Source: a virus | Taxonomy: Duplodnaviria; Caudoviricetes | IMG/VR virus record: IMGVR_UViG_3300032167_000048 | Length of the DNA stretch: 64,000 bases | Direction: 5' to 3' (one strand) | In this document: one piece after another, positions 1 through 19,235 of the stretch | How positions within the stretch are numbered: the stretch's first letter is position 1 | How the letters are laid out: every line of letters begins with the position of its first letter | The notes under the pieces: generated by a model | Told to the model about the DNA's origin: nothing | The model's input: the letters and a program-made list of their open reading frames with translations, nothing else | The model's database searches: none | Translations under genes and position numbers: made by a program

Positions 1-190
1 GGTTTTTGGGGTGAAAGGGGGGGATGAATGTGGTTGAATGTGGGTTGTGGAGTGGGGATAGAATGCTTTAAAAGTAGGGATTTTTAGTGGTAAGTGGGAG
101 AGTGGTGGGGGTGTAGTGGGGGTGTAGTGAGGGTGTAGTGGGAGAAGAGGGTCGATTTTGGGGTGTTTTTGGGTGTAGAGTGGGGGATGT
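1..190 (+). repeat. G-rich, C-poor low-complexity tract (G-quadruplex potential)
   Basis: Many GGG/GGGG runs and repeated GGGTGTAGTG units in an otherwise very AT-rich genome. Confidence 0.8.
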
Positions 191-252
191 TTTTCTTTTA
201 TATCGCTCCACTAGATACAAAAAAGTTTCTCAACTCGTGTCGCAAGTAAAAG

Positions 253-310
253 TTATCCACATTTTCCACATAGTTTTCCACATTATCCACAATCTGCAAA
301 GTTATCCACA
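253..310 (+). promoter_or_regulatory. Cluster of five co-oriented DnaA boxes
   Basis: TTATCCACA at 253, 283 and 302; TTTTCCACA at 262 and 274; all match TTWTNCACA. Confidence 0.8.
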
Positions 311-313
311 ATC

Positions 314-608
314 TGCCAGTTCCTCCAGTTTCTCCAGTTCAATTCCCAAATCTTCCAGTCGCCCAAAGTTCAGTCAAAGCACAAAGTTAAAGTTTTTAAA
401 AAATAGATTTTTCTGTTTCCAGTCGCTTTTCCAGTCGCTTCTCCAGTCGCCACACCAAACTAAAGTTTTTAAAAATTCCATTTTTCTGTCCAGTCAAATC
501 ACTCCAGTAAAGTTTTTAAAAATTCCATTTTTCTGATTTTCCAGTCGCCTCCAGTCAAGGCACAAAAAAGAGAGTGGATTTTCTCCACTCCCTTTTGAGT
601 TCCAGTAT
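314..608 (+). repeat. Dispersed short direct repeats TCCAGT(CGC)
   Basis: About 12 CCAGT copies, including three near-tandem TCCAGTCGC at 418-450. Confidence 0.7.
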
Positions 609-645
609 TCAGTTGTATGGGGTTATAATCCTATAACCTTATATG

Positions 646-921
646 TTATCCAGTAATAGTAAATCTTCTGCTTACTGTCTGTTTAACATACAATTTGTAA
701 ATGTCAGGACAAGCCGTTTTAAATGTTGTAGTGTCAAATCTGTTACTAGATACATTTTTGTATTTAATACAGTATCTTCCACATTTCATTTCTTCTTTGC
801 TCTGCATTTCTGCTTTGATTTCATCTTTGATAGCTTCGATTTCTTCCTCGGCTTCTTTTACGATTGCTTCAAGTTCTTTGAGTTCTTCAATCTTTTTCAT
901 TAGTTCAATAGTAGTCATCAT
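646..921 (-). CDS. Small coiled-coil phage protein resembling the C-terminal region of YqaJ-type recombinases
   Basis: Own promoter, GGAGG RBS and terminator; RFDTTTFK..CPDIYKLY...SRRF tail. Confidence 0.75.
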   Translation of the reverse strand: MMTTIELMKKIEELKELEAIVKEAEEEIEAIKDEIKAEMQSKEEMKCGRYCIKYKNVSSNRFDTTTFKTACPDIYKLYVKQTVSRRFTITG

Positions 922-1034
922 AAAATTTTCCTCCTAGCATTGGTGCTTTGTTTATACTGTTCTTTTAACTGTCTTTATTATACCACCTATATATCTACTT
1001 GTCAAGTATTTATTTAAAACTTTTTAAATTATTT

Positions 1035-1077
1035 TTTCCGTGTATCTTCCGTGTATCTTCCGTGTATCTTCCGTGTA
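1035..1077 (+). repeat. Tandem 11-bp repeat (TCTTCCGTGTA) x4
   Basis: Directly visible; another copy near 10103. Confidence 0.9.
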
Positions 1078-1465
1078 GTTTATGAACGTATGTTCTAGTT
1101 TGTGAATTTGATATTTTTATGTTATATCACATTCACATTGCATAAAATCTTCCAACTGGCATAGATGTAAAGTTTTTAAATATTCCATTTTTCTGTGCGT
1201 TCTGGAGCATACAAGTAAAGTTTTTAAAAATTAGGATTTTTTGGATGACAGTCCTATATAAATAAAGTTTTTAAAAATTCAATATTTTTGGATTGATAAA
1301 TCAAGATAAATCAACAAGATAAAGTTTTTAAAAATTCAACTTTTTTGGATTGCCAGATATGACAAAGTAAAGTTTTTAAAAATTCAACTTTTTTGGTTTG
1401 TACCTGTGGATGTTACAGCACAAAAAAAGACTAGGCTTTTCGCCTAGTCTTATAACCTTATTTGT

Positions 1466-2062
1466 TTAGTGTTCGTGGAATGCTACGTGTTCGCCATTCT
1501 TTAAGCTCCAACAGTTCACATTCTTCTTTGCACATTCTAAACAGTTTCCAGTACAGATGTTCCAGTTTTCTTTAGGTTCGCAACCTTTAAAGATAACGTG
1601 TGCAACTGGAATATTATGTGGGTTTTCCATTGTCATACCTTCCCATTCTGAAAAGATAAGATGTAAGTTAGTTGGAATGCTTCCACCATTATTGATATAT
1701 GTATTAACAAAATGGTATCTTTTTGTAAATACTAAGATGTCACAATGTGGATTCATTTTTGCTACGTCTACCATATCTACAAGATATTCATAACAAGGAA
1801 TGTCGCCAGCTACGTGCATTCTGAAGAATCGGCTTGTACACATTGCGTCAGATACCTGATTCCAATATTCAACTGGGTTATTCATGTAGAGTTCAAGATT
1901 TCTATTATAAGAATCTCGCACGTTTTTGTATCTACACATTCTTTTTGCGTAGCACTTTTTAGCACAAGTGCAACCGCTCGCACATGTTACGATTGGTGGT
2001 AAAGATACACTTTTAATTTCGCCCATTTTTACATTTCCTTTTGATACACTAATTGTCATCAT
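1466..2062 (-). CDS. GP88-like Cys-rich (radical-SAM-like) protein
   Basis: SLPP..TC...C.CAKKCYAKR, FFRMHVAGD and C-terminal CxxxCxxC; promoter, RBS and terminator. Confidence 0.7.
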   Translation of the reverse strand: MMTISVSKGNVKMGEIKSVSLPPIVTCASGCTCAKKCYAKRMCRYKNVRDSYNRNLELYMNNPVEYWNQVSDAMCTSRFFRMHVAGDIPCYEYLVDMVDVAKMNPHCDILVFTKRYHFVNTYINNGGSIPTNLHLIFSEWEGMTMENPHNIPVAHVIFKGCEPKENWNICTGNCLECAKKNVNCWSLKNGEHVAFHEH

Positions 2063-2149
2063 AATAAATACCTCTCTTTTCTAAGATGCTTTGTTTTATT
2101 TGTTAAGCTAATTATACACTATAAAAAACCACTTGTCAACTACTATTTT

Positions 2150-2395
2150 AAATTTAATTATAATTATTTAATAATAATTATCATATAATTATAGGTCATA
2201 ATTTAATAGGTCATAATTTAATCGGTCATAATTTAATCTGTTATAATTTAATAATTATTATAATAGTAATTATTATCATGTTATAATAGTAATCATTATT
2301 ATTGTAGGTATTGTGCAATTATTTTATATAATTAAAACAATTCAAAATAATTAAAATAGTTTAAACAATTTAAACAATTCAAACAATTTAGTTGG
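2150..2395. repeat. Very AT-rich tract with GGTCATAATTTAAT x3 and AAACAATT(T/C) repeats
   Basis: Visible at 2194-2238 and 2334-2390. Confidence 0.8.
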
Positions 2396-2912
2396 TTAAA
2401 GTTTTTTAAAAATAGGTTTTTTTGTCTATTATAACATATTTTTAATAATTTGTCAAGTAGTTTTATAGAAAATTTTTTAACGTACATATAAGTAAAGTTT
2501 TTAAAAATTGGATTTTTTTGGACTACCAGAACCAGCAAACATATAAGTAAAGTTTTTAAAAATTAGAAAAATTTGGCACAGTCTATATTCTGGAAACATA
2601 AAGCTAAAGTTTTTAAAAATTCGAAAAAATTGGATGCTGGTCGCCTGCCAGATACAACAAACTAAAGTTTTTAAAAATTGGACTTTTTTGTCCCAGCAGG
2701 TCGCAACCGTATATTAAAGTAAAGTTTTTAAAAATTGGATTTTTTTGGATTGCTGGTTGCCGTCTGGGAGAATGGTTTAAAGTTTTTAAAAATTCAACTT
2801 TTTTGGACGCTGGAGCTGTACCAGATACAACGGTTTAAAGTTTTTAAAAATTTAACTTTTTTGGCACGCTCCAGAAAATAAAAAATAAGGGCTGATTTCT
2901 CAGCCCTCATTT

Positions 2913-3230
2913 TTATTCATTCAATAGATAACAATAATCAACTTTCCAACCGTCTACTCCATGCATATACCAATCAAGTCTCACCCCTAAATCTGTTCCA
3001 TCTAAACAATCTGCAAAAATAGAATTGCTTGACTGGTTTGGTAAGAATGCTTTTTGGTCACTGGTAAATTCATAACTGCGTTCTAGCTCTGTATATGGTG
3101 CTGTAAAACTATTCTCTGTAAATACTACAACTCCAGTTAATCGCTTTTCATTGCCTTTTGTTTTGTAGCCGTGTTCTTCGTTGAATTTCCACATTGCTTC
3201 AATCATTTCATTCCAAGTAATTTTTTTCAT
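2913..3230 (-). CDS. Hypothetical cassette protein
   Basis: 105 aa; promoter, GAGG RBS and terminator. Confidence 0.85.
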   Translation of the reverse strand: MKKITWNEMIEAMWKFNEEHGYKTKGNEKRLTGVVVFTENSFTAPYTELERSYEFTSDQKAFLPNQSSNSIFADCLDGTDLGVRLDWYMHGVDGWKVDYCYLLNE

Positions 3231-3570
3231 AGTTTTTACCTCTTTTCTTTATTAAGTTGTTTTATTAGGTTAATACTATTGTAAAGGATAACAAGCTATT
3301 TGTCAAGTAGAATTTTATATTTTTTTAAATTAAATTGATTGATTTTTTCTATAAGTATATATAAAGTTTTTAAAAATTAGATTTTTTAATTAGTAAAGTT
3401 TTTAAATATTTAAAAAAATTGGCAGCAGGCAGCAGTCTGGCATTAACAAAGTAAAGTTTTTAAAAATTGCATTTTTTTGGCTATGCTGGAATAACGGTTT
3501 AAAGTTTTTAAAAATTTAATTTTTTTGGATAAAAAATCCAATAAAAAAAGGAGGACTGCTCCTCCTAATT

Positions 3571-3708
3571 TTATTTAACCTCAAAAGGGACTTCTGCATC
3601 CCAGTCCCATGATTCGTATAAGTCCATCATACGACCAATAGAGTTCTGTGCCAACTCTGGTTTTGCCCCTCTAGATACTTCTAAATCAAAATATTCACTC
3701 CATGTCAT
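3571..3708 (-). CDS. 45-aa acidic cassette protein (not in ORF track)
   Basis: MTWSEYFDLEVSRGAKPELAQNSIGRMMDLYESWDWDAEVPFEVK; AGGAG RBS, promoter at 3757-3785, terminator right after the stop. Confidence 0.8.
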   Translation of the reverse strand: MTWSEYFDLEVSRGAKPELAQNSIGRMMDLYESWDWDAEVPFEVK

Positions 3709-3955
3709 AGCTCAAATCTCCTATTTAAAAATATACTCTGTTCACTTGTTAAATATATTGTATCATGTTAGTTGCTATTTGTCAAGTAGTTTGATTTATT
3801 TTTTTAAATATTTTTTATAAAAATTAAAACCAAAGTTTTTAAAAATTCAACTTTTTTGGATTTAGCTGTATTAAATAAAATTGTAAAGTTTTTAAAAATT
3901 CAATTTTTTTGGCTAGATAAAAATAAAATATAAAAGCACAAAAAAAAGAGACTGT

Positions 3956-4264
3956 TTACCAGTCTCTCTCTTTTGAACGTGGTCTATAACCGAACATGTC
4001 CTTGTGCCAGTCTGAGTAGAATCCCCAAGTTTCATCATCAATCTCATTCCAGCTCTTGCCCTTAATGTTCTTTTCATAGAACGCATCAAACTGTTCTTGA
4101 TTCTCTTCTCGGTATCTCTCATCCATGATTGAGCTTAAAAAGAAGTACTTCTTATATGTAGCATCCCAATCATTATCGCAAGGATTCATTAGTTCTAACA
4201 TGTCGCCAAGTCTTCTCATCTCGCTTCTGATTTCATCGTTAGTCATTGTGTTGTAGTTCATCAT
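3956..4264 (-). CDS. Hypothetical cassette protein
   Basis: GGAGG RBS favours the ATG at 4264; promoter and terminator present. Confidence 0.8.
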   Translation of the reverse strand: MMNYNTMTNDEIRSEMRRLGDMLELMNPCDNDWDATYKKYFFLSSIMDERYREENQEQFDAFYEKNIKGKSWNEIDDETWGFYSDWHKDMFGYRPRSKERDW

Positions 4265-4595
4265 AACTAAGCCCTCCATATATTCTGTTGTTTATATACT
4301 AAGTATACACCACATTTAATAACTTGTCAAGTAGTTTTATAAAATTATTTAAACTTTTTTGCCGTACCTGTCGCCAGCCTGAGTAGAACAACGGTTTAAA
4401 GTTTTTAAAAATTGAAAATTTTTGGCAGCAGGCAGCAGGCGATTAAAGTTTTTAAAAATTCAACTTTTTTGGCTTGCCAGCTGTTTATCGCTGGCAAGTG
4501 GCAGCAGTCAATTAAAGTTTTTAAAAATTTAATTTTTTTGGATTGAAAAAATAAAATAAACATTTTAAGAGAATAAAAAAATGAGCTAGATTTCT

Positions 4596-4841
4596 CTAGC
4601 TCTTTGGCATTCTTACTATTTTGTGTTTACAACAATAGTCATATAATTTTGCTTGATTCATTTCACACATTTCTTGTGTAAAATCATTTACTATTAAGAT
4701 TTCATCTACACATTTACTCATTGTGCTTAACTCACTCTTCCAGCCTCTCATGGTCTTATTTCTGAGTTTTTGTAAACCATTGTTTCCCATTGGATTCTGC
4801 ATTCCTAAACTTCCTAAGTTAATAAATCCTACTGCGTACAT
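4596..4841 (-). CDS. Hypothetical cassette protein
   Basis: 81 aa; AAGGAG RBS, promoter and terminator. Confidence 0.8.
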   Translation of the reverse strand: MYAVGFINLGSLGMQNPMGNNGLQKLRNKTMRGWKSELSTMSKCVDEILIVNDFTQEMCEMNQAKLYDYCCKHKIVRMPKS

Positions 4842-5141
4842 ATTAAGTTCTCCTTTACTTATTGAGTTGTTTTATTTGTTAATATAATGATACACCATAG
4901 CTTGCTATTTGTCAAGTAGTTTATTTAAAATACTTTAAATTATTTTTTGACTGGTGACGGTGACGACACACGGTTGTTGTAGTTGTTAAAATATAGTTTT
5001 TAAATATTTAAAAAAATTGGCAGCAGGCAGCAGGCTTTTAAAGTTTTTAAAAATTGAATTTTTTTGGATTTTAAAAAATAAAAGACAACTTTTAAGAGAA
5101 TAAAATAAGGGCGATAACTTACGTCATCGCCCATCATTTTA

Positions 5142-5399
5142 TTATGCAGTTTTTAAATTGTTTAATGCAAATTTTAAATAATCTAAATCTCCATTGAACT
5201 CCTCATGGCTTTTTACCCAATCATCACTCCACTCATCGAAATCTCCACGAACGGAAATTGTTATATCATTATCTGATATACTCTTGATTCTAGCAATTCC
5301 AAAACCGTCTAATGAATCATGGAAACCTACAAAGAACATAATTTCCATTCCTTCTTTTGCTTCACTAATGTTGTTAATAATAACTGCGTTGTTGTTCAT
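5142..5399 (-). CDS. Hypothetical cassette protein
   Basis: 85 aa; AAGGAG RBS, promoter and terminator. Confidence 0.8.
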   Translation of the reverse strand: MNNNAVIINNISEAKEGMEIMFFVGFHDSLDGFGIARIKSISDNDITISVRGDFDEWSDDWVKSHEEFNGDLDYLKFALNNLKTA

Positions 5400-5797
5400 A
5401 ATGAATCTCCTTTTCTTTATTAAGTTTTATTATTTGTTTTCCAACTGTCTTTAGTATACCACATAAGCAACTACTTGTCAACTACTAATTTAAAATAATT
5501 TAAAATAATTTTTTATCATAGCTTAATAAAGTTTTTAAATATTTAATTTTTCTGGCAGCAGGATGACAATTATATATAACTTTAAAGTTTTTAAAAATTG
5601 AAAAAAATTGGCAGCAGGTTGCCAGAAAAATTAAAAAGGTAAAGTTTTTAAAAATTCGATTTTTTTGTCACCAGACGGCAGCAGGATAAAGTTTTTAAAA
5701 ATTGAAAAAAATTGGCAGCAGGATTCTGGGTTTGATAAAATAGTAAAGTTTTTAAAAATTCGATTTTTTTGGATTTGAAAAGATTATGACTAAACAT

Positions 5798-5917
5798 AAA
5801 AAAAAGAGGGCTGATTTTTCAGCCCTCAAAAAACAACGGATATATATTTTCAACACATCAACAACAACAACAACACTACTAAAAGAAAAGAGAACGTATT
5901 CCGTTGTTTTTTATCTA
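5798..5917 (-). ncRNA. Candidate ~120-nt small RNA cassette
   Basis: Consensus promoter at 5923-5951, no ORF, a 13-bp perfect closing stem (5828-5840 with 5900-5912), then a terminator at 5798-5827. Confidence 0.75.
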
Positions 5918-5970
5918 ATATAATTATACTATAAATTAGTTAATTTGTCAAGTATATTTTTTAATTATTT

Positions 5971-6234
5971 TTACTTTCCAGCAAATCGTGGTAAAAATCT
6001 ATTAAACTCCACAGCTGGATAACTGCTTCTGTCAACGTGGTTAACAATTCCTACAAGGTCGTGTGCAAAGTTAAAGTTATCTGCGTTCAACCAATCTTCT
6101 AATCGCATGTTAAAATACTTATCTGCACTTTCAATATCCATTATAAGTGTTAACCGTTCTCCGTGATAGATTCCAAGCTCCTCTGCTCTTTCAGCTATTT
6201 TAACGTATATCATAAATCTTTCTTTGTCTTTCAT
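5971..6234 (-). CDS. Conserved small phage protein (DUF6874-like)
   Basis: LNADNFNFAHDLVGIVNHVDR...FLPRF motif; promoter and RBS. Confidence 0.65.
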   Translation of the reverse strand: MKDKERFMIYVKIAERAEELGIYHGERLTLIMDIESADKYFNMRLEDWLNADNFNFAHDLVGIVNHVDRSSYPAVEFNRFLPRFAGK

Positions 6235-6529
6235 AGTAATCGCTCCTTACTTGTTTTATTTAAGTTAATTATAACGCATATTCTTCTATTTGTCAAGTAG
6301 TATTTTATATTTTTTAACAAACTTTTCCTGAGCTAAAAAAATGTAAAGTTTTTAAAAATTGCATTTTTTTGGCGAGGTGGCAGCAGGCTGGACAAGTTTT
6401 TCAAAATTGATAAAAACTGTCCAGCTGGCAGCAGGATTCTAAAGTTTTTAAAAATTACATTTTTTTGGATTATGGCAGCAGGATGTCGGACAATGAAAAA
6501 GAGCGGTAGATTTCTCCACCGCTCTTGTT

Positions 6530-6904
6530 TTATACTAGCACCGCCTTTACTAATAACATCATGTTTGGTATAAATACTTCCCTTCCGAGTTCCTCACGGA
6601 CTATGTTTATTTGTCTGTCGGTCAATCCAATTGTGTTTCCCTCATCATCATGACTTACAAATACGCAATTACCCATGATTAAATCTAATACTCTGTTTCC
6701 ATCTCTGTCTAGTACTGCAACTTGAGGTTCAAGTCCAATTAACTTACCCTCTTCATTTATAATTGGGTCAATTCTTTCTTGTATGAATCTTTCGCACATA
6801 TATGCTCTTTCAATCCATCCACCAACTATTTCTTGCATAGTTTCTAAACTGTTTTCAATTTCTTTTTCTTTTAAGATTCCGTTTTCTAATACTATTGCTC
6901 TCAT
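6530..6904 (-). CDS. DUF3846-like protein
   Basis: NSLETMQEIVGGWIE...INEEGKLIGLEP motif. Confidence 0.75.
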   Translation of the reverse strand: MRAIVLENGILKEKEIENSLETMQEIVGGWIERAYMCERFIQERIDPIINEEGKLIGLEPQVAVLDRDGNRVLDLIMGNCVFVSHDDEGNTIGLTDRQINIVREELGREVFIPNMMLLVKAVLV

Positions 6905-7299
6905 GTTAAGCTCTCCTTTTCTTTTTGCTTTGTTATTATATATACATTATAACGCTAATTATTTATATTGTCAAGTAGTTTTATTAAATTTGTTTAAAAT
7001 ATTTCTCCAGTCGTCCACCTGTGACTCTGGTGTTATAGTTTTTAAATATTGAGAAATTTTGGAAAAACGCGTATACATTTAAAGTTTTTAAAAAATCAAT
7101 TTTTTTGGCAGCAGGTTGCCAGACAGGAATGGCACTCTAAAGTTTTTAAAAATTGAAAATTTTTGGCAGCAGGATACCAGATAAAATAATAAGTTAAAGT
7201 TTTTAAAAATTGGATTTTTTTGGATTATGCAAATCTGGTTTTAAACTAAACAAAAAAAGAAGAGTTGATTTCTCAACTCTTCCTATATAACCTTGTTTG

Positions 7300-7557
7300 T
7301 TAGTGTGCTACTTCTAAGCTACACCACCAAGCCTTACCTCCTCCGTTAATTCCTAACATATCAATAAAAGCGTTAATGTGTTTCATTGTAGTTGCACTGT
7401 AATCATCCCAAAGTCGTTCAAATCGTCCCTCATGCACTCTAGCAACGATTGTGTTGTAACTCTTTAATTCAATGTCGCCATTGTCTTTTTCAATTACTGT
7501 TGCTTTTCCGTAGAATGATTTCTGTCTGTTGTTTGGTTTAAGTTCGTAAGTTCTCAT
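7300..7557 (-). CDS. Hypothetical phage protein
   Basis: 85 aa, KSFYGKA...LKSYNTIVA...YSATTMKH; full cassette signals. Confidence 0.8.
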   Translation of the reverse strand: MRTYELKPNNRQKSFYGKATVIEKDNGDIELKSYNTIVARVHEGRFERLWDDYSATTMKHINAFIDMLGINGGGKAWWCSLEVAH

Positions 7558-7864
7558 GATGTTCTCTCCTTTTGAAATGTGTTATTTGTTTTATCTGTCT
7601 TTATTATAATGCATATATAACTATTTGTCAAGTAGTAAAATGAAATTTGTTTAAATTATTTTTTAGCTGGTGACACACGGTTGTTGTCGTTGTTATTATT
7701 TTAAAGTTTTTAAAAATCGATTTTTTTGACTCAACCGTTTTAGTTAAATAAAGTTTTTAAATATTTAAAAAAGTTGGCAGCAGGATGCCAGATAAAACAA
7801 CGGTTTAAAGTTTTTAAAAATTGGATTTTTTTGGATTAGACAGGCAAAAAAATATGTGTGGCGA

Positions 7865-8245
7865 CTACCACACATATTTATCATAAAGCTCTTTGATTTC
7901 ATCTTCGTTTTTTGTCTTTACACATTTATCAATGAGTTTAATATATGTATAAACCATATCATTATGTCTTTGCTGTTGTCTGTACTGGCTATAATCGTCA
8001 ATATACTGTACATATTTATCATAACCCCTTAAGAAGTATTCCATTACATCCTTTTTGTTGTCTTCTGTAATTTTAACTACTTCTCTGACTCTGTCTGTTT
8101 TTTTGATAGTTTCTAAATACGTTTTGTTTCCACTATCTTTGTCTACCTCGCAATTATTTAAATAATATTCTTTTTTACCATTTTCCTCTAATGTTAAGAA
8201 TAAATAATCTTTTTCAATTCCCTTCATTTTAACTAATACGTTCAT
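7865..8245 (-). CDS. Hypothetical cassette protein
   Basis: GGAGGT RBS favours the ATG at 8245; the track start at 8290 overlaps the promoter. Confidence 0.8.
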   Translation of the reverse strand: MNVLVKMKGIEKDYLFLTLEENGKKEYYLNNCEVDKDSGNKTYLETIKKTDRVREVVKITEDNKKDVMEYFLRGYDKYVQYIDDYSQYRQQQRHNDMVYTYIKLIDKCVKTKNEDEIKELYDKYVW

Positions 8246-8536
8246 GTTTGTACCTCCGTGCGTTGTTTCTTGTTGATTATATATTATCACATAAAAGATA
8301 TATTGTCAAGTAGTTTTGGATAAATTTGTTATTTTTTTCTGCTGTTAAAGTTTTTAAAAATTCATTTTTTTGACACGCCAGACGCATAAACGTAAAGTTT
8401 TTAAATATTTAATTTTTTTGGATTATGAAAACAGGATGTGGCATAAAGTTAAAGTTTTTAAAAATTCGATTTTTTTGGCATATAAAAAAATAAAAGAAAG
8501 ATTTTAAGAGAAATAAAAAAGGAGCTTTTCAGCTCC

Positions 8537-8722
8537 TTAAAACATGCATCCTATAATGTATAATGCAAATAACATTACAAAGATTGAAAGTGCTCCAACG
8601 AAGTCGAGTGCTTCTTCTTTTGAAATACCCCATTCATTCCAAAATCTTCTGAAACGAATCTTTGCATATTTTTTAATAAGTTTAATCTTTCTTTTATCTT
8701 CTTTGCTTAATAATGTTTTCAT
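8537..8722 (-). CDS. Small membrane protein
   Basis: Basic N-terminus, C-terminal hydrophobic helix; RBS, promoter and terminator. Confidence 0.75.
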   Translation of the reverse strand: MKTLLSKEDKRKIKLIKKYAKIRFRRFWNEWGISKEEALDFVGALSIFVMLFALYIIGCMF

Positions 8723-9158
8723 AATGTTTTCTCCTTTAAATATATGCTTCGTTTGTTGTTAATATTATGTTACCACATGTTTAATATAATGTCAAGTAGT
8801 TTTTTAAATATTTTTTATTTTTTCTGACTGGAATTAACTGGAGTGTACAGCGATTAAATAGTAAAGTTTTTAAATATTTAATTTTTTTGGCAGCAGGCAG
8901 CAGGACACTATTAGTTTTTAAAAAATGAGAAATTTTGGAAAAACGCGTATACATGTTAAAGTTTTTAAATATTTGATTTTTTTTGGATTGACCGTTTTTA
9001 CACATTTAAAGTTTTTAAATATTCAACTTTTTTGGATTTGATTTTTTTAGATTTTAAAAATGTAAAGTTTTTAAAAATTCGATTTTTTTGGCATGAAAAG
9101 AAATATAAAAAATAGCAATAAAAAAAGAACACGTTGTTTCCAACGTGTTCCATATGTT

Positions 9159-9416
9159 TTAAAATACGGATTCTAATAGACCACTAAAGCTGTTAGCTTC
9201 TTGTCTTTTGCGAATCATACTGTAATGATTCATACGAGCATCATACAATGTTGTTGCTCTCATGTATTCAATTTCAGTTCCGTCTGAGTAAAGTGCCATT
9301 GTTTCGTAAAATGGTCTCTTCTCATCGCTAAAGTATACTGTTGAGATATACTCATCTTTATTTGAGTACTGTGTATTAGGTTTACTGTGTAAAATGTGAA
9401 GTGATATTCTAGTCAT
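9159..9416 (-). CDS. Hypothetical cassette protein
   Basis: 85 aa; AAGGAGG RBS, promoter and terminator. Confidence 0.8.
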   Translation of the reverse strand: MTRISLHILHSKPNTQYSNKDEYISTVYFSDEKRPFYETMALYSDGTEIEYMRATTLYDARMNHYSMIRKRQEANSFSGLLESVF

Positions 9417-9672
9417 AATATTGACCCTCCTTAAGTAATATGTTGTTGTATTGCCCTCTTGAGCTATTTATAGTATATCAAATGATACATACGTTGTCAA
9501 GTAGTTTCATTAAATCTTTTCAATTTTATTTTCACAGGTGGTTTTTACATTAAAGTAAAGTTTTCAAAAATTCCATTTTTTTGGCGTGACCGTTTCAGTA
9601 TTTTAAAGTTTTTAAAAATTCCATTTTTTTGGCGTGACAAATTAAATAAAAAAAGAAGGTCTTGTGACCTTC

Positions 9673-9834
9673 TTAATTTTCCTTGAAAAATGCAGTTACT
9701 GTTTTTTCCACGTCTATTTCTGCATCTTCTCTTGCATCTGCAATGTTTACAGCATCTTCAAAGAACATTGCTTCAATATATTCATCAAATGATTCTCCGT
9801 TTTCTTTTTTAAAATAAATGTGCCATTTCTTCAT
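9673..9834 (-). CDS. 53-aa acidic cassette protein (not in ORF track)
   Basis: MKKWHIYFKKENGESFDEYIEAMFFEDAVNIADAREDAEIDVEKTVTAFFKEN; GGAGG RBS, promoter at 9879-9907, terminator. Confidence 0.8.
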   Translation of the reverse strand: MKKWHIYFKKENGESFDEYIEAMFFEDAVNIADAREDAEIDVEKTVTAFFKEN

Positions 9835-10374
9835 AATAAAATCCTCCGTATGTGTGTTGTATTGTTTTAACTGTCTTTATTATACATGATAAAAAGTATT
9901 ATGTCAAGTATTTTATTTAAATTTGTTTAAATTTATTCAAATTTTCCGAGCCACCGAAAGTTTAGAAATTGGAAAGTTTAAAATGTAAAGTTTTTAAAAA
10001 TTGAATTTTTTTGGAATATTCCGAGCGATAGAAAAATAGTTATTCCAAATGTTTAAAAACTTTATCACAATTATTCCTAATGTTTAAAAACATTTATTCA
10101 TATATCTTCCGTGTGATTGACAAATAAGTTTTTAAAAAATATATTTTTTTGTTTTACATATTTTCCAGTTGTAATTATGTATAATATAAATATTATTTTA
10201 AAGTTTTTAAAAATTCGATTTTTTTGGCTTGAATAAATTTTATCCAGACTGACGACAGGTTTTATCCATATTGGCAGCAGTCAATAATAAAAATGTAAAG
10301 TTTTTAAAAATTGCATTTTTTTGGCAAGTGGCAGCAGGCGACTAATTTTCCTATTCGCCAAAAGTGTTTGTTTA

Positions 10375-10800
10375 AATTTTCCGTTAGGTGCAAAGATTAA
10401 GTTAATTTATTCCGTTAGATTCCATTGATTTATTCCGTTAGATTCCATTGGTTTATTCTGCTTATTATATTATTGCTTATAATGTGTTTATTTTCCGTTT
10501 TAAGCTATGATATGTATTATATAGATATAAATATATAATGATATATTTAAAGCGTGTTTAAAGCGTTTTTAAAGCGTGTTTAAAGCGTGTTTACGCAAGC
10601 CCAAAGATTTTCCATGCAAGCCTACGATATAACGTCAAATCTTCCGTTTATCGCACGTTATATAGTACGTTGTAGCACGTTATATAGTACGTTGTATATA
10701 TACGTATACGATAGAAAAAATAATTGCATCCTGACGTTTTAAAAATTTTCCGTTAAACGCAAAGATTAGTTTAAAAACTTTCCGTTAAACGTAAAGTATA
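10375..10800. repeat. Non-coding block of mixed tandem and direct repeats
   Basis: TTTATTCCGTTAGATTCCATTG x2, TTTAAAGCGTGT x4, GCACGTTATATAGTACGTTGTA x2, TTTCCGTTAAACG x2. Confidence 0.85.
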
Positions 10801-10859
10801 TAAATGTAAAGTTTTTAAAAATTAGATTTTTTTGGTTTGTTAGCAAATAAAAAGAAGAG

Positions 10860-11222
10860 CTATCTCATAGCTCTTCTTCTTTTCGCTTCTTCAAGTCGCT
10901 TCTGAAACTCTTGTCTTCTTGCTTCTCTCTCTTCTTTTGATAAGATACCATGCTTCTTAAGGTATGCTGGGATTTCAGATTCTGCAATATATCTATCTGT
11001 GATATCATGATAGTCAATCGCTGGGTCACCAGTCTCTACAAAGCTCTCTAAGTGCACCAAATAAAACAACTCTTTGCTCATTTCACTTGTATGTGGGATA
11101 TTCAAACAGATTCTGCATTTTGTGTAGTTTGAGATGCTACCGAATGCGTACTCCATAATCATATCATTCTTTTCGCTTGCTACAAAACCTCTTGATAATA
11201 AATCGTATTTTAATTTTAACAT
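10860..11222 (-). CDS. Hypothetical protein
   Basis: GGAGG RBS favours the start at 11222 (MLKLKYD); terminator overlaps the stop. Confidence 0.75.
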   Translation of the reverse strand: MLKLKYDLLSRGFVASEKNDMIMEYAFGSISNYTKCRICLNIPHTSEMSKELFYLVHLESFVETGDPAIDYHDITDRYIAESEIPAYLKKHGILSKEEREARRQEFQKRLEEAKRRRAMR

Positions 11223-11302
11223 AATCTTGACCTCCAACTTTTTGCAATTTTTAAAAACTTTACTTTTCTTATTTGCTGGGGCTAATTTGTTAGCCCCATT
11301 CT

Positions 11303-11596
11303 TTACCATTCGTATCTTCTATACTCTTCGTATGCTTCGTAAATGCTTGTCATACTACACTGTGCAACCTCTGCACTTCCCCATGAATCGTGTCTGTAGT
11401 TAAACTCTTTCTTTTCATAGCGTTTTTTGTATGTTCTCGCTTCCTTGTCACAGGACTTTACGTAAAAGTCCTGAATTCTACTCTTCTCTTCTCTCTCCCT
11501 CTCTTCTCTTCTTCTTTTTGCTACCTCTTCTGGAAAATTCATTTCCTCGATAAATTCGAAATATGCGTCAATACTCTGAAATCTAATTCTTGCCAT
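11303..11596 (-). CDS. Hypothetical charged protein
   Basis: GAGG RBS favours the start at 11596 (MARIRFQ). Confidence 0.75.
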   Translation of the reverse strand: MARIRFQSIDAYFEFIEEMNFPEEVAKRRREEREREEKSRIQDFYVKSCDKEARTYKKRYEKKEFNYRHDSWGSAEVAQCSMTSIYEAYEEYRRYEW

Positions 11597-11686
11597 TTTA
11601 ATATCCTCACTTTCAATTTTTTGCAATTTTTAAAAACTTTACTTTGTGGTTTTTGGGGAAAGGGCTTTCGCCCTTTCCTTATAACC

Positions 11687-12706
11687 TTACTGGTATTTTT
11701 TGTAGATACCTACCAGCTTTTTCGCAGCCACATCTGCTTTGTGCTTGCGATACTCTGTTTTGGATGGAATTCGGTTTCCATTTACGTCCAATTTTGGGCT
11801 TCCGTCAGAGCTTTTTCTGTAGTATCTTCTTGTATCAATTTCCGTGTCATTGAAGTGTTCACAGAAGTTTCTTACGATACACTGCACCATTTCTACCTCC
11901 ATTTTCATGAGGTTCTGATACTGCTTTGCACTCACGAATTTGTTGATTCGGAATTCGATATTGTTATTTGCAAGGCAATTTACAAAGTAGTATCTATCAT
12001 CGTGTTCTTCCTGCTTGCTATTCCAGTCGATTGTGTCGGCATATCCGTTGAAGTATCTACCGAAAACTCTTTCAGTTGTTTCTCTATCGGCTTTCATTTC
12101 CTCGCATAATGGAATGAAAAGGCTATTGTAGAAACGTCTTACCATGTCCATGTATGAACCTTTGCCTGTGTTTTTGCCATTAGCATCTTTCATGCTATTG
12201 ATAGATACATGGAAGTGTGTACCACATGAGCTATTCACTTTTAAAATACCCTCATTCATGAGGTCTTCGCATGTCTGTGCAAACTTGCTTGGTCTGTTCA
12301 AGCCTTGCATAATCGCGGACACATATTCACAAGTGTTTCTATCGCGGCCGTATCTTGCACCATAGCCATCGCTTCTGAGGGAGCTGTCGTGTGTTGGGAT
12401 AAACCCATATTCAAACATGGCATTTCTGAGCTTGTCATCTGAAAAGCTGGTTTCGAATTCGATACCACAGAGCACGCCATTCTTTTTGGCAGTACCCATG
12501 ATTTTTTCATTTGCAGTATGATACCATAAGTTTCTAGCCGCGCATGTTGGGCACATGAGGCTTGCACGTCCTCCGCGCTTGCGGGAAATTGTACGTGTCA
12601 TAATTTCAATTGGAAAGTCGTGTCTACAGCAAGAGCAAGTTGCCTCGATGCGTCCGTGTCTACGTGTTGCGTTTGCGTCTGTGTTCATTGTGTTGATAGT
12701 TGTCAT
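11687..12706 (-). CDS. Putative amidoligase (COOH-NH2 ligase family) with an N-terminal Zn-finger
   Basis: GIEFE, HDSSL, EYVS, SCGTHFHVS and IEFR motifs; CSCC..CPTC; AAGGAGG RBS. Confidence 0.75.
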   Translation of the reverse strand: MTTINTMNTDANATRRHGRIEATCSCCRHDFPIEIMTRTISRKRGGRASLMCPTCAARNLWYHTANEKIMGTAKKNGVLCGIEFETSFSDDKLRNAMFEYGFIPTHDSSLRSDGYGARYGRDRNTCEYVSAIMQGLNRPSKFAQTCEDLMNEGILKVNSSCGTHFHVSINSMKDANGKNTGKGSYMDMVRRFYNSLFIPLCEEMKADRETTERVFGRYFNGYADTIDWNSKQEEHDDRYYFVNCLANNNIEFRINKFVSAKQYQNLMKMEVEMVQCIVRNFCEHFNDTEIDTRRYYRKSSDGSPKLDVNGNRIPSKTEYRKHKADVAAKKLVGIYKKYQ

Positions 12707-12899
12707 AGTTTTGTTCCTCCTTGATTTGAAAAAGTGTTTTGTTGTTTTCTGAGGCTAATACATCATAAAAATTTCTCTACGTCAATAGAAAGTTTTTAAA
12801 TTCTTTATTTTTCTGGAAACTTGCAAGTTTTTGCGTGGGGTGGGGGTGGTTTACAATTAAAAGTCGGAGGGGCGAGCCGCGTGGGGGAGAATGTAGTAC

Positions 12900-13170
12900 A
12901 CCTAATCCTATACACCCAACCCACCGTCCGATACAACCCAACACACAATCCACTCTCCACCCCCCCATTTCACATTTCCAACACGTCCCCCTATCCCAAC
13001 TAAACAAAACACCCCAAATACCCAAAGCAAATATCCGCCCCTCTCTTCCAACAACTCAACAATCCAACAACAACCATATCTCCCAACCAAACACATCAAA
13101 TCCCCATCCAAGACCAACAATATCTACTACTACCACAAAACTCTACCTATACCCTATACCCCCCTATTTC
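12900..13170 (-). repeat. C/A-rich tract (G-rich on the minus strand)
   Basis: Almost G-free 270 bp with many CCC runs; compositional mirror of 1-190. Confidence 0.8.
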
Positions 13171-13248: not shown

Positions 13249-13277
13249 TTGACAATTTACAGAAAATGGTGTATAAT
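13249..13277 (+). promoter_or_regulatory. SigmaA-type promoter for the RNAP operon
   Basis: ACTACTTGACA-N17-TATAAT, same family as the cassette promoters. Confidence 0.85.
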
Positions 13278-17569: not shown

Positions 17570-17797
17570 AATTATTTGTAAACAACCAAAAAATAAGGTT
17601 ATATATAATATATAAAATTTATAAATAGCCTTAAAATAAGGAGTGTAAAATAGTAGCAAAAGGGGAAACACCCTATAACAAGCAATTATTCTTAAAGGTT
17701 GCTGGACAGAAAGTACTAATTAGAAACTACAGTCAACCTTTAAGATATTTTGTCGTCCTCCTTATTTTAAACACAAATTAAATTGGAGGTAGATATA

Positions 17798-18214
17798 TTG
17801 AGTGATAAATTAACGATAACAAAAGAAAATTTAATTAATATCATATCAAATAAATGTGAAGATGATTTTATTTCGACAAGTGATTTAATTAAAATAATAG
17901 ATAGCATTTCTGATGAGTATGGCGTTATTTCAAAGAAAAAGATAATGAAAGCAATTAAAGATTCGCATACAAAAAAAGTTGTTAAGGATATCTACGATAT
18001 AGTAGAGACTTCTTTATTTGAATCTCTTTCTTTAGTTAATGAAAAACAAAATGTTAATATTAAATTGTTTGAGGGTATTAGTTTAAGTGGAAATTATACT
18101 TCTGAAAAAATTAAAAAAAATAATTTAACTGGTGAAATGGCACTTGTTAAAGGTAAGATTAAACCTAAATTTAATATTACTCGTACTTATTGTGAAAAAT
18201 TAAATAACAAATAA
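17798..18214 (+). CDS. HU/IHF-like DNA-binding protein
   Basis: VNIKLFEGISL...KKNNLTGE....KIKPKFNIT arm pattern; GGAGGT RBS before a TTG start. Confidence 0.65.
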   Translation: MSDKLTITKENLINIISNKCEDDFISTSDLIKIIDSISDEYGVISKKKIMKAIKDSHTKKVVKDIYDIVETSLFESLSLVNEKQNVNIKLFEGISLSGNYTSEKIKKNNLTGEMALVKGKIKPKFNITRTYCEKLNNK

Positions 18215-18370: not shown

Positions 18371-18442
18371 GGCTCTATAGTATATCGGTTAGTACACTAG
18401 CCTGTCACGCTAGAAAGGCGAGTTCGATTCTCGCTAGAGTCG
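18371..18442 (+). tRNA. tRNA-Asp(GTC)
   Basis: Cloverleaf; CTAGC-CTGTCAC-GCTAG; GTTCGA T-loop. Confidence 0.9.
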
Positions 18443-18446
18443 TTAT

Positions 18447-18519
18447 CGCCCTGTGGACAAGTGGTTTAAGTTACATCCCTTTCACGGATGCGTCAGGGGT
18501 TCGATTCCCCTCAGGGTGA
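18447..18519 (+). tRNA. tRNA-Glu(TTC)
   Basis: CATCC-CTTTCAC-GGATG anticodon arm. Confidence 0.9.
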
Positions 18520-18527
18520 TTTGTTTT

Positions 18528-18618
18528 GATAAGGTGGCAGAGCTGGTTTAATGCACCAGATTGCTAATCTGGCGTACTTTGTTTAAAAGTACCGTGGGGT
18601 CGTAGCCCACCCTTATCG
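18528..18618 (+). tRNA. tRNA-Ser(GCT)
   Basis: CCAGA-TTGCTAA-TCTGG, long variable arm, atypical T-loop GTCGTAG. Confidence 0.8.
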
Positions 18619-18623
18619 TTTTT

Positions 18624-18813
18624 GTCGCCATAGAGACGTAAAACCTATGGTAGCGTTCTCTGCTGCGGAGAATGAAAATATGAGCAGAATAACGGAAAAG
18701 CTGGGGCGTACTCAGTAGTCATGCATTTGACACGTCAAGGTGAAAGAGGTATTGCGGTACACTACGCATTAGAAATAGTGAGAAGCCATGAGCAAGACAT
18801 GAATATCTTGCAA
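18624..18813 (+). ncRNA. Candidate structured ncRNA within the tRNA cluster
   Basis: GC-richer non-coding 190 nt with several hairpins; not a cloverleaf. Confidence 0.45.
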
Positions 18814-18817
18814 ATTT

Positions 18818-18901
18818 GCTGTGTTGGCTCAATTGGTACAGCAGCGGTCTTGAAAACCGCCATTCCGAAAGGATATCTGAGTTCAAGTCTCAGGCACAGC
18901 G
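18818..18901 (+). tRNA. tRNA-Ser(TGA)
   Basis: GCGGT-CTTGAAA-ACCGC with a variable arm. Confidence 0.9.
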
Positions 18902-18910
18902 TTTTTTTAT

Positions 18911-18991
18911 GCTGGTGTCGCATAGTGGTTAATTGCGGTAGATTTGTAATCTACTCCGAAAGGTACGTGAGTTCGAATCTCACCATCAGCT
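18911..18991 (+). tRNA. tRNA-Thr(TGT) with an extended variable arm
   Basis: GTAGA-TTTGTAA-TCTAC; acceptor GCTGGTG/CATCAGC. Confidence 0.8.
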
Positions 18992-19004
18992 TGATTTATA
19001 ATAT

Positions 19005-19077
19005 TCTTCTTTAGCTCAGTAGGTAGAGCATTCGGCTGTTAACCGAAGTGTCGTTGGTTCAAGTCCAACAAGAAGAG
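19005..19077 (+). tRNA. tRNA-Asn(GTT)
   Basis: TTCGG-CTGTTAA-CCGAA. Confidence 0.9.
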
Positions 19078-19082
19078 TTCAT

Positions 19083-19155
19083 GGGGTGTTAGCTCAGTTG
19101 GGAGAGCGCCTGCCTTGCACGCAGGAGGTCAAGGGTTCGACCCCCTTATGCTCCA
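19083..19155 (+). tRNA. tRNA-Ala(TGC)
   Basis: CCTGC-CTTGCAC-GCAGG; G3:U70. Confidence 0.92.
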
Positions 19156-19160
19156 TTTTA

Positions 19161-19235
19161 TGCGGGATAGAGCAGTCTGGTAGCTCGCTAGCCTCATAAG
19201 CTAGAGGTCGGTGGTTCAAATCCACCTCTCCGCAA
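19161..19235 (+). tRNA. tRNA-Met(CAT) with an initiator-like D arm
   Basis: CTAGC-CTCATAA-GCTAG. Confidence 0.85.

Follow-up and report, generated by a model that had tools for sequence, protein, structure and literature searches.

We analysed a 64-kb stretch of DNA, called the window, which forms the early end of an SPbeta-like phage genome of ~153 kb that encodes a YonO-type RNA polymerase; the putative host is a member of the gut or rumen Lachnospiraceae. Much of the left part of the window is taken up by single-gene early cassettes, whose near-consensus sigma-A promoters have their own UP-like tracts (Table 1). None of the early cassette proteins, most of which are acidic, has a recognisable DNA-binding domain or a Pfam or PHROG match to a regulator. 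Rfam returned no match in the array region, its only matches being 8 tRNAs at 18371-19234. Clusters of a repeated motif, TAAAGTTTTTAAAAATTNNANTTTTTTGG, lie after the terminator of one cassette and before the promoter of the next, with 1–7 sites in each; in all there are about 16 such arrays, each associated with a promoter and running antisense to the neighbouring early genes. The leftmost array sits to the right of a DnaA-box and CCAGT-repeat region. The majority of sites fall at -70 to -430, off the core promoter, and only the copies at 2397-2425 and 10124-10152 overlap a promoter, the latter occupying the spacer and -10 of a plus-strand promoter-like site (10117-10145). Candidate positions for direct occlusion are the P2456 start, the promoter spacer at 10117 and the sites 5' of two ribosome-binding sites.

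Table 1. Motif arrays and single copies in the window, and the early cassettes they accompany
Feature	Coordinates	Strand	Context
Early cassettes, about 17 (proposed regulated set)	600..12706	-	ACTACTTGACAA-N16-TATAAT-type promoter, small mostly acidic protein gene, intrinsic terminator
Array, 3 copies (starts 388, 461, 508)	388..536	+	left of terminator of gene 646-921
Array, 5 copies	1168..1396	+	from P1005 (minus strand) to terminator 1427-1451
Single copy	2397..2425	+	just downstream of P2456 -10 (minus strand), over predicted transcription start; candidate occlusion position
Array, 7 copies (spacings 55, 57, 58, 57, 58, 58)	2493..2864	+	from P2456 to terminator 2881-2914
Array, 4 copies	3362..3528	+	upstream of P3306
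Array, 2 copies	3831..3912	+	upstream of P3785
Array, 3 copies	4397..4541	+	upstream of P4330
Array, 2 copies	4992..5067	+	upstream of P4915
Array, 5 copies	5527..5772	+	upstream of P5481; right arms alternate T-form/A-form
Array, 3 copies	6344..6468	+	upstream of P6296
Array, 4 copies	7034..7223	+	upstream of P6974
Array, 3 copies	7702..7834	+	upstream of P7631 (cassette gene 7300-7557)
Array, 3 copies	8346..8478	+	upstream of P8309
Array, 5 copies	8862..9091	+	upstream of P8795
Array, 2 copies	9556..9632	+	upstream of P9500
Five scattered copies (9986, 10124, 10199, 10296, 10807)	9986..10835	+	ORF-free control region
Reversed A-form copy	11234..11262	-	directly 5' of ribosome-binding site, minus-strand gene 10860-11222
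Reversed A-form copy	11613..11641	-	directly 5' of ribosome-binding site, minus-strand gene 11303-11596
Degenerate copy, A run one base short	12786..12816 (about)	+	read directly from sequence

A scan with the 29-nt pattern, allowing up to 3 mismatches, gave 44 matches on the plus strand and 0 on the minus strand (0.01 expected). With a 15-nt core and up to 2 mismatches, 57 copies were found at 388-10835, all on the plus strand, in agreement with the first-pass annotation, which had listed about 57 co-oriented motifs there. These 57 copies compare with 0.01–4 expected and are confined to the early cassette region; three more lie outside 388-10835, two on the minus strand and one degenerate, and beyond 12.8 kb the window holds no copy. 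The degenerate copy abuts the -35 of a putative promoter for an amidoligase-like gene (11687-12706). The repeats are not identical and vary at fixed positions: the right arm may be a T tract or an A tract, while the terminal TTGG is kept in both forms. In the window motif T5A5 is central, T22-27 forms the arm and G28 stands at +18. Strict co-orientation is a peculiarity of this genome. Related phages have a ~36-bp near-palindromic site with the consensus CA-N11-TTTTTAAAAA-N11-TG and A/T-rich arms. Conservation spans all 29–36 bp, G/C positions (TAAAG, TTGG, CA...TG) included. A near-palindrome of this kind would suit a dimer, and the tolerance of T or A arms next to a kept TTGG may reflect shape readout combined with contact to a boundary G, by analogy with phi29 p4 (PMC3100819, PMC1904284).

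The layout of the arrays is common to related phages, some of which use a near-palindromic form of the window motif (T type) and others the unrelated GGTATAWTATACC (G type), a strict palindrome with conserved GG/CC ends and without A tracts, whose sites can be only 16–17 bp apart; in one relative, L117, a G site lies within the 5' leader of a gene. The genomes are pure in motif type: G sites number 0 in the window and 1 in nine other T loci, and T sites number 0 in G loci. Cassette genes 7300-7557, 646-921 and 1466-2062 are nevertheless found in phages of both types, and the first has orthologues in L117 and L123 with flanking GGTATAWTATACC arrays. That genomes are pure in motif type, yet have cassette genes in common, points to a genome-specific trans factor. 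A further related phage, L156, lacks arrays but has the same promoters, which can therefore exist without them. Among 61 Lachnospiraceae genomes, which may not represent the family of the true host, GGTATAWTATACC showed no enrichment (14 matches vs 21 for the control) and the T right-arm pattern TTTTTAAAAATTNNANTTTTTTG had 0 matches; on this sample, with the true host possibly lying elsewhere, the motifs do not look like operators of a host regulon.

The arrays are regularly spaced. Out of 40 spacings of up to 100 bp in the window, 16 measure 46–48 bp and 16 measure 55–58 bp, and the other 8 are 32, 50, 53, 69, 73, 75, 96 and 97 bp; the chance of finding 32/40 spacings in 7/71 bins is 2e-25. 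The computed distribution is bimodal and reproduces the earlier hand count of the two classes. At 10.5 bp per turn the window spacings give a Rayleigh R of 0.63 and a mean phase of 0.46 turn, so that the proposal that neighbouring sites lie on opposite faces of the helix holds as far as it presupposes about 10.5 bp per turn; at 10.0 bp per turn the phase is 0.72, and spacings in the related locus L136 are close to whole turns (31–35, 42 and 53 bp), showing that the half-turn rule is not universal. Spacers are 17–29 nt long with recurring GGCAGCAGG and CCAG words, and their likeness inside one length class (0.28–0.35) is close to that predicted from base composition (0.26–0.27). Since they are unrelated in sequence, it is their length that is conserved, and the two classes are not merely two duplicated units. 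Quantised spacing like that of the window recurs in 9–10 further related loci: nine with the window motif, when pooled, have 82/222 spacings at 46–49 bp and 48/222 at 56–59 bp, though such phasing statistics combine related and partly homologous loci, and their counts are therefore not independent. For GGTATAWTATACC in two genomes, an unbiased period scan gave 10.4 bp with a phase of about 0.55–0.57 (R 0.52; null 99% = 0.28). The view that this geometry is under constraint is thus strengthened, as spacer length is kept without spacer sequence, is quantised in relatives, and follows a 10.4-bp ladder even with an unrelated motif.

The ladder extends to the promoters. Across 49 promoters in 10 loci, the centres of the promoter-nearest sites fall at -71.5, -81.5, -91.5, -100.5, -112, -122 and -132, with a best period of 10.4 bp (R 0.56; null 99.9% = 0.45).

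Neither of the proteins put forward in the first-pass annotation as candidate binders tracks the motif. The recognition helix of the HTH protein (298 aa; a weak SopB_HTH match, 18 bits vs a cut-off of 27) is essentially the same in phages with the T motif, with the G motif and with no arrays, as is the arm region with which the HU-like protein (17783-18214) would bind DNA. The C-terminal 89 residues of the latter are predicted to adopt an HU/IHF fold (pLDDT 86; TM 0.61–0.68 to HU and IHF chains), and it has weak profile matches to IHF-beta, HU and TF1, with PDB 1exe matched. A recombinase had also been suggested for binding assays, and the 64-kb window encodes none; in one relative a tyrosine recombinase and a ribbon-helix-helix-like protein are encoded next to the arrays, but both have counterparts of at least 67% identity in a relative that lacks arrays. 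Motif type shows no covariation with the phage polymerase either.

From the anatomy and phasing of the arrays, their conservation across relatives, the swap of one motif for another and the absence of covariation with polymerase, HTH or HU-like protein, we infer, tentatively, that the motif clusters are operator arrays for a dimeric and probably phage-encoded regulator that acts as a switch on the early promoters and most likely turns them off. The sites would dock a two-fold symmetric, sequence-specific DNA-binding protein encoded outside the 64-kb window, and the ~10.4-bp ladder, usually with a half-turn offset, would place neighbouring dimers on alternating faces, with the promoter-nearest site in rotational register with its promoter. 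Cooperative occupancy of the arrays could then build a higher-order complex by which about 17 very strong early promoters are switched together, while a few single sites may work as roadblocks or through direct occlusion. We favour switching off, which would amount to early shut-off or lysogenic silencing, because the promoters are already near-consensus; with the majority of sites at -70 to -430, a repressor would have to loop or coat the DNA or to contact RNA polymerase, and same-face phasing with class-I activator positions would suit activation equally well. Every cassette promoter has an array upstream of it, with the nearest site in phase, and for this reason promoter silencing or insulation agrees with the anatomy better than do the other functions listed in the first pass. 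A centromere, a nucleoid-like filament and protection of first-injected DNA fit poorly with about 16 separate promoter-tied arrays.

It is unlikely that the arrays act positively, as landing pads for the host sigma-A polymerase or activator sites that mimic UP elements or -10 elements. They might gather host polymerase around the early cassettes or divert it from host genes, and trapping it would cost the phage little as it has its own late polymerase. Read in the direction of the early genes the window motif has the look of a compact UP element, with A run, T5 and A5, GGTATAATATACC includes TATAAT, often with TG before it, and a variant in L121 includes TTGAAA; the promoter-nearest sites also lie on the -71.5/-81.5/-91.5 face that class-I activators such as CAP use. 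Polymerase elements, however, leave the conserved G/C positions unexplained, as they do the strict palindrome and GG/CC ends of the G site; the promoters are already consensus with UP-like tracts of their own, the alpha C-terminal domain cannot reach sites out to -430, and relatives use the same promoters without arrays. We find it rather improbable that the HU/IHF-family protein coats the arrays by shape readout, in the manner of SPO1 TF1 and with no separate specificity factor. Its predicted fold and the place of its gene in an early plus-strand operon with the polymerase would agree with such a role, and IHF and TF1 sites are similar in size to the ~36-bp site with its A-tract arms. On the other hand, its arm and body residues do not differ between phages of the two motif types and those without arrays, HU homologues adjoin yonO in SPbeta and phage D-1873, neither of which was seen to have cassette arrays, and the arm tip (KNNLTG) lacks the intercalating proline; moreover, G sites 16–17 bp apart cannot each hold a ~35-bp footprint.

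Much the same doubt attaches to the idea that the repeats are mainly joints or scars of cassette shuffling between phages, with their spacing a by-product, as with the promoter/stem-loop cassettes of T4-type phages or with pdif modules. Junction repeats do persist among relatives while cassette content differs greatly, and a tyrosine recombinase adjoins the arrays in one of them, but the same enzyme recurs in an array-less phage, and recombination does not account for a junction having 2–7 copies, for spacing in 10.4-bp steps despite unrelated spacers or for the phasing to promoters. Exchange cannot rely on array homology either, given that cassettes are common to phages with different array motifs. 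A protein-free structural element, curved or easily melted AT-rich DNA that tunes supercoiling or promoter strength, seems very improbable: the motif is composed of phased A and T tracts, and upstream curved DNA stimulates Bacillus phage promoters in a phase-dependent manner, yet the G motif has the same layout and phasing without A tracts, and strict G/C conservation and purity of type within genomes would not be expected. We attach equally slight probability to the motifs being plus-strand promoters for the YonO-type polymerase or another phage factor, serving antisense shut-off of early genes. In its favour, the 57 copies of this genome share one orientation and a GG end, each of two reversed copies is in sense orientation to a gene and immediately precedes its ribosome-binding site, and the YonO promoter has no defined sequence (PMC5467207). 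Against this, SPbeta YonO initiates at a single late promoter (PMC5467207), the site is palindromic in relatives, and polymerase identity is only 23% for L112, where the motif is the same, but 79% for L117, where it is different. The plus-strand late genes in the window, furthermore, have no copy before them, so that the motif, which does not follow polymerase lineage and offers no sense sites upstream of late genes, does not look like a YonO promoter.

Operator arrays of the kind we favour have close parallels in phages of Firmicutes. The p4 sites of phi29 read 5'-AACTTTTT-15 bp-AAAATGTT-3' (PMC3100819, PMC1904284). They are inverted repeats, in which p4 reads the boundary G directly and the outer and central A tracts by shape; judged by its letters, our site likewise has an inverted repeat, a boundary G and outer and central A tracts (PMC3100819), though it is ~36 bp in size with the boundary G at +/-18 rather than +/-13. 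In both cases the phage has a Firmicute host, a putative one here, the early promoters are of the sigma-A type and the known or proposed regulator sites lie upstream of them, and the likeness we propose extends to several sites building a higher-order nucleoprotein complex, as with p4/p6, that switches strong early promoters. The four p4 sites of phi29 share one 120-bp control region, as against 57–88 sites in about 16 or more arrays here. Pfam and PHROG matches of the early proteins revealed no homologue of p4 (about 125 aa, N-hook fold) or of p6. SPbeta, of the same broad phage group and with yonO, terminase and gene order in common, has a repeated element, SPBRE, at about 10 early promoter regions, bound by one repressor, MrpR/YopR (PMC10516654). 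SPBRE (ATACAAAWAATATGTAT, derived from seven SPbeta promoter regions) is about 17 bp long and present as a single copy overlapping the -10, whereas the window has arrays of as many as 7 copies, for the most part at -70 to -430, and a motif, TAAAGTTTTTAAAAATTNNANTTTTTTGG, with no relation to SPBRE; only two copies in the window overlap promoters in the way of a single core-promoter site. A tblastn search with YopR gave nothing below E = 1 in the 64-kb window of the ~153-kb genome or in the related loci. By analogy, then, the site reads like a phi29 p4 site and the arrays would work like p4/p6 or MrpR/SPBRE, while apparently belonging to neither.

Stoperators of Cluster A mycobacteriophages offer another parallel, as dozens of sites for one repressor in intergenic gaps, with motif types that differ between related phages (PMC9283540, PMC6550527); in this window the sites are, like stoperators, asymmetric and in one orientation relative to transcription. 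Stoperators, however, are 13-bp sites that occur singly within transcription units and halt elongation (PMC9283540, PMC6550527), and the present sites form phased arrays outside transcription units, oriented against the early genes and palindromic in relatives. A centromere of the parS, parC or tubC kind is not indicated, with about 16 promoter-tied arrays and no ParA, ParM or TubZ gene in the window, nor is a CRISPR array, given that the repeats differ from one another at fixed positions, that genes interrupt the arrays and that no cas gene was seen in the window. TF1, the HU homologue of SPO1, reportedly prefers ~37-bp sites in the host-takeover region, where many small early genes have strong promoters. 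It resembles the HU-like protein here in being a phage HU-family protein encoded near transcription genes, but the latter does not covary with the motif and is present in array-less relatives. T4-type phages have autonomous single-gene promoter-early stem-loop cassettes, each with a promoter and terminator of its own, which are shuffled between relatives. We know of no phased multi-copy motif arrays between those cassettes; the likeness lies in the single-gene early cassettes themselves, which here too have their own promoter and terminator and are shuffled between relatives.

In the window, the 29-nt motif pattern, with up to 3 mismatches allowed, matches 44 times where 0.01 matches are expected, each time on the + strand (44/44), and its 15-nt core occurs in 57 + strand copies within 388-10835. 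The spacing count of the first-pass annotation, which described two dominant classes, was exact: of 40 within-cluster spacings, 16 fall at 46-48 bp, 16 at 55-58 bp and 8 elsewhere. Were spacings spread uniformly, the probability of such a concentration would be 2e-25; the mean spacing phase is 0.46 turn (R 0.63, at 10.5 bp per turn). Spacers of the same length class are no more similar than base composition predicts, and this conservation of length without conservation of sequence argues against two simply copied units. The right arm of the motif takes two forms, NNANTTTTTTGG and NRAAAAAATTGG. The NRAAAAAATTGG arm is usually followed by GGCAGCAGG, which has 18 + strand copies, always directly after a motif, and does not occur outside the arrays in the 64-kb window. 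Scanning IMG/VR for the exact motif gave only chance matches for a single 17-mer and none for a two-copy pattern. Reversed copies of the perfect core and a degenerate copy are listed in the table.

The arrays belong to a row of early cassettes. From ~600 to 12706 every gene lies on the minus strand, and each small early gene has its own ACTACTTGACAA-N16-TATAAT promoter, with an A/T-rich tract 5' of it, and its own intrinsic terminator. A promoter scan returned 17 minus-strand promoters scoring 10-12/12, and a terminator scan 26 terminator-like sites vs 6.7 expected. Every array occupies the gap that separates one cassette's terminator from the next cassette's promoter. The products of the early genes are small, acidic for the most part, and without a recognised DNA-binding domain; Rfam found only tRNAs in the window. 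Other readings of the repeats were dropped on reading: a sigma-54 promoter (spacing one off, few copies), a CodY box (4-5 mismatches, and 14 bp long instead of 15), avoidance of Type III restriction via co-oriented CAGCAG, and weak TTGGCA-16/17-TAAAGT promoters spanning neighbours at 47-48 bp.

Judged from its large proteins, the window comes from an SPbeta-like phage, though a distant one. The two-barrel RdRP family is matched by a 972-aa protein, which shares 44-49% identity with SPbeta YonO and with the YonO homologues of Clostridium phage D-1873 and Psychrobacillus phage Perkons; between the large terminase and SPbeta YonF, identity is 47%. The gene order small acidic protein, polymerase, HU-like protein is that of yonP-yonO-yonN. 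Megablast of 1-12000 retrieved no near-identical phage record. For the conserved 298-aa helix-turn-helix (HTH) protein, at least 991 relatives occur on metagenome contigs, the longest of which reach 150-165 kb; some of them bear Lachnospiraceae MAG labels. The contig of the window itself measures 153,188 bp.

About 20 related loci were retrieved via the amidoligase-like protein p339 and the 298-aa protein. Nine carry arrays with the window's core, the site being a ~36-bp near-palindrome, CA-N11-TTTTTAAAAA-N11-TG. As the relatives' site is near-palindromic, strict co-orientation is a peculiarity of the window genome. The motifs of L121, a distant relative (33% identity in the 298-aa protein), are GTTTTTGAAAAT and GTTTTCAAAAAT. 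Two loci, L117 and L123 (298-aa protein 68% identical), have arrays of an unrelated palindrome, GGTATAWTATACC, and the L117 polymerase is 79% identical to the window's. The whole L117 record holds 80 exact copies of GGTATAWTATACC, all inside its 21-kb cassette region (control, 1). In five related loci the 10 kb read contain no arrays; in one of these, L151, the genes of that stretch are packed as operons. Locus L156 has the same cassette promoters without arrays. No genome mixes motif types, yet some cassette genes, for example those at 7300-7557, 646-921 and 1466-2062, are present in phages of both types.

Half-turn phasing recurs across these loci. When the TTTTTAAAAA-type spacings of 10 loci are pooled (222), the peaks are 46-49 and 56-59 bp, and smaller groups lie at 30-36 and 42. 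The 101 spacings of the GGTATAWTATACC type fall into groups near 16-17, 26-27, 36 and 46; in an unbiased period scan they give a maximum at 10.4 bp, with a phase of 0.57 turn and R 0.52 (null 99%, 0.28). In 11 of 12 loci the mean phase, taken at 10.5 bp per turn, lies at 0.37-0.59 turn; the exception, L136, has spacings of about whole turns. The arrays are also registered to promoters: at 49 promoters, the centres of the nearest sites form a ladder at -71.5, -81.5, -91.5, -100.5, -112, -122 and -132, with a best period of 10.4 bp (R 0.56; null 99.9%, 0.45). In the GGTATAWTATACC type the nearest sites gather at -84 to -96 and no clear ladder emerges. Because the loci are related to one another, none of these counts is fully independent.

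The sites speak for a sequence-specific, dimeric protein that each genome encodes: the relatives' sites are palindromic, the motif is pure within a genome although cassettes are shared, its variable positions are fixed, and its arms accept A or T tracts alike yet keep the boundary G. Sites on alternating faces of the helix would allow close packing of dimers and hold any induced bends in one plane. We favour the array as a negative switch, since the promoters match the consensus as they are, some sites lie over a transcription start, inside a promoter spacer or before ribosome-binding sites, and relatives use the same promoters without arrays. Phasing to the promoter fits activation too, so that the direction of regulation is something we infer. 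A further picture, which we consider possible though rather doubtful, is a modular silencing lattice in gut phages: a new family of dimeric binders that polymerises on phased arrays, gates cassettes and is exchanged together with its arrays. Three or more specificity types (TTTTTAAAAA, TTTTTGAAAA and GGTATAWTATACC) would make up such a family, and its dimers on alternating faces would build a planar zigzag or rod-like filament. Registered to each promoter, the filament would gate 17-30 autonomous host-takeover cassettes together, and factor and arrays would be swapped jointly, as an immunity/specificity module, among otherwise close phages.

Which protein might bind the arrays was weighed against motif type. 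Motif type does not follow the polymerase. The first-pass annotation had proposed the HTH and HU-like proteins, and neither choice held: the HTH recognition helix GISSKTLSKIIDILE is essentially unchanged across all motif types and array-free phages, and so are the HU-like protein's arm and body, which speaks against that protein as specificity factor. The HU/IHF fold of the latter's C-terminal domain was confirmed, and HU homologues accompany yonO in SPbeta and D-1873 too. For the 298-aa HTH protein, phage records gave no match, a profile search of PDB sequences was empty and the AF2 model was poor (pLDDT 46). The leader of its gene contains two copies of the palindrome ACCGTACATTTTGTACGGTG, kept with either motif and without arrays. 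This pair would be the likelier target of the HTH protein; it probably acts as the operator for that protein or as an RNA element.

The amidoligase-like p339, which has an N-terminal zinc ribbon, is the first leftward gene beside the divergent control region in phages with the window's motif (T) or the F motif. It tracks those motifs, being found in 11/11 loci with T or F and 0/7 others (within the 10 kb read), but it is an enzyme. At the same position, phages of the GGTATAWTATACC (G) type have a T7-kinase-like 233-aa protein, also an enzyme; the swap suggests that either of two host-takeover enzymes can fill this position. We read the tracking by p339 as linkage of a takeover gene rather than as the mark of a binder. 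A DUF3846 protein seemed T/F-specific because only 10 kb had been read; it is also present further left in a G-motif record, and it is acidic. Next to G arrays lie a ribbon-helix-helix-like protein and a tyrosine recombinase, and both recur in an array-free relative. No MrpR homologue was found in the window or the retrieved loci, and across 61 Lachnospiraceae genomes the two motifs show no enrichment. The binder gene probably lies in the ~90 kb of the genome outside the window.

Protein p4 of phi29 reads a boundary G directly and outer and central A tracts by shape (PMC3100819, PMC1904284). The sites of the window, with their boundary G and outer and central A tracts, show a matching logic. 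By analogy, the arrays may be likened to the phi29 p4/p6 switch, SPbeta SPBRE/MrpR and mycobacteriophage stoperators, yet they fit the definition of none of the three. Literature searches on SPBRE, YonO, phi29 p4/p6 and stoperators, rather than on arrays as such, turned up no account of phased multi-copy operator arrays per early cassette, nor of motif replacement between close relatives. Gut and rumen metagenomes contain this phage clade very often, and the genes in its early cassettes probably serve host takeover and anti-defence. For this row of strong, self-contained cassettes the arrays are the evident shared means of control, and they show how many promoters could switch at once. Quantised spacing, promoter registration and motif swap together make a clean, testable case of co-evolution between operator array and factor. 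The binder, once found, would probably reveal a new regulator family and would also give a set of compact, orthogonal multi-site operators for Firmicute synthetic biology.

Coordinates of features in the window and in related loci
Feature	Locus	Position	Strand	Remark
Reversed perfect-core copy	window	11234-11262	minus	directly ahead of ribosome-binding site
Reversed perfect-core copy	window	11613-11641	minus	directly ahead of ribosome-binding site
Degenerate motif copy	window			abutting promoter of gene 11687-12706
Terminator-like hairpins	window	5609-5624, 7775-7790	minus	small; GGCAGCAGG + subsequent NTGCCA
p339 gene	window	11687-12706	minus	
T7-kinase-like protein gene	L117	7561-8262	minus	
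Palindrome pair in HTH gene leader	window	~13430-13510		copies ~44 bp apart
Palindrome pair in HTH gene leader	L117	9868-9935		copies ~44 bp apart
Palindrome pair in HTH gene leader	L151	9877-9946		copies ~44 bp apart
972-aa polymerase gene	window	14651-17569		
HU/IHF-fold protein	window	17945-18214		
tRNA gene cluster	window	18371-19234		8 genes, between HU-like gene and late genes
First protein past tRNA cluster	window	19264-20487		
ORF-free stretch	window	9990-10840		850 bp; five motif copies, several other repeat families
Consensus-like promoter	window	10117-10145	+	in ORF-free stretch; motif copy inside its spacer
DnaA-box-like words	window	240-320		TTATCCACA x3, TTTTCCACA x2
CCAGT-type repeats	window	320-450		follow the DnaA-box-like words
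G/T-rich tract	window	1-200		mirrors C/A-rich tract
C/A-rich, G-poor tract	window	12900-13170		upstream of early promoter 13249-13277 (+)
C-rich tract	L117	9000-9400		
Tandem repeats	window	1036-1077, 2191-2253, 10546-10593, 93-142		upstream of promoters; units 11 or 15 bp
Genes left of arrays in a G-motif relative	L153 (G004 record)	4846-8600		GmrSD_N-like protein, 261-aa tyrosine recombinase, ribbon-helix-helix-like 131-aa protein
ArdC-like anti-restriction protein	L153	12844-13704		among cassettes

Several further observations concern the flanks of the arrays. The ORF-free stretch resembles a control or origin-like hub, and the DnaA-box-like cluster, at the early region's left edge, could serve as an origin or titrate DnaA. 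C-rich tracts similar to that of the window also lie upstream of yonP, yonT and yonX in SPbeta. The tandem repeats (TTCCGTGTATC x3.8, ATAGGTCATAATTTA x4.2, TTTAAAGCGTG x4.4 and AGTGGGGGTGT x4.5) may be sites for other factors. The HU/IHF-fold protein has KNNLTG in place of the RNPxTG of HU and IHF, and so is without the intercalating proline; an N-terminal extension of ~45 residues is present in some relatives and absent in others. The catalytic residues of the L153 recombinase are apparently retained. Finally, the first protein past the tRNA cluster shares 29-39% identity with its counterparts, against 60-82% for neighbouring genes in the same relatives, and its gene is fast-evolving.
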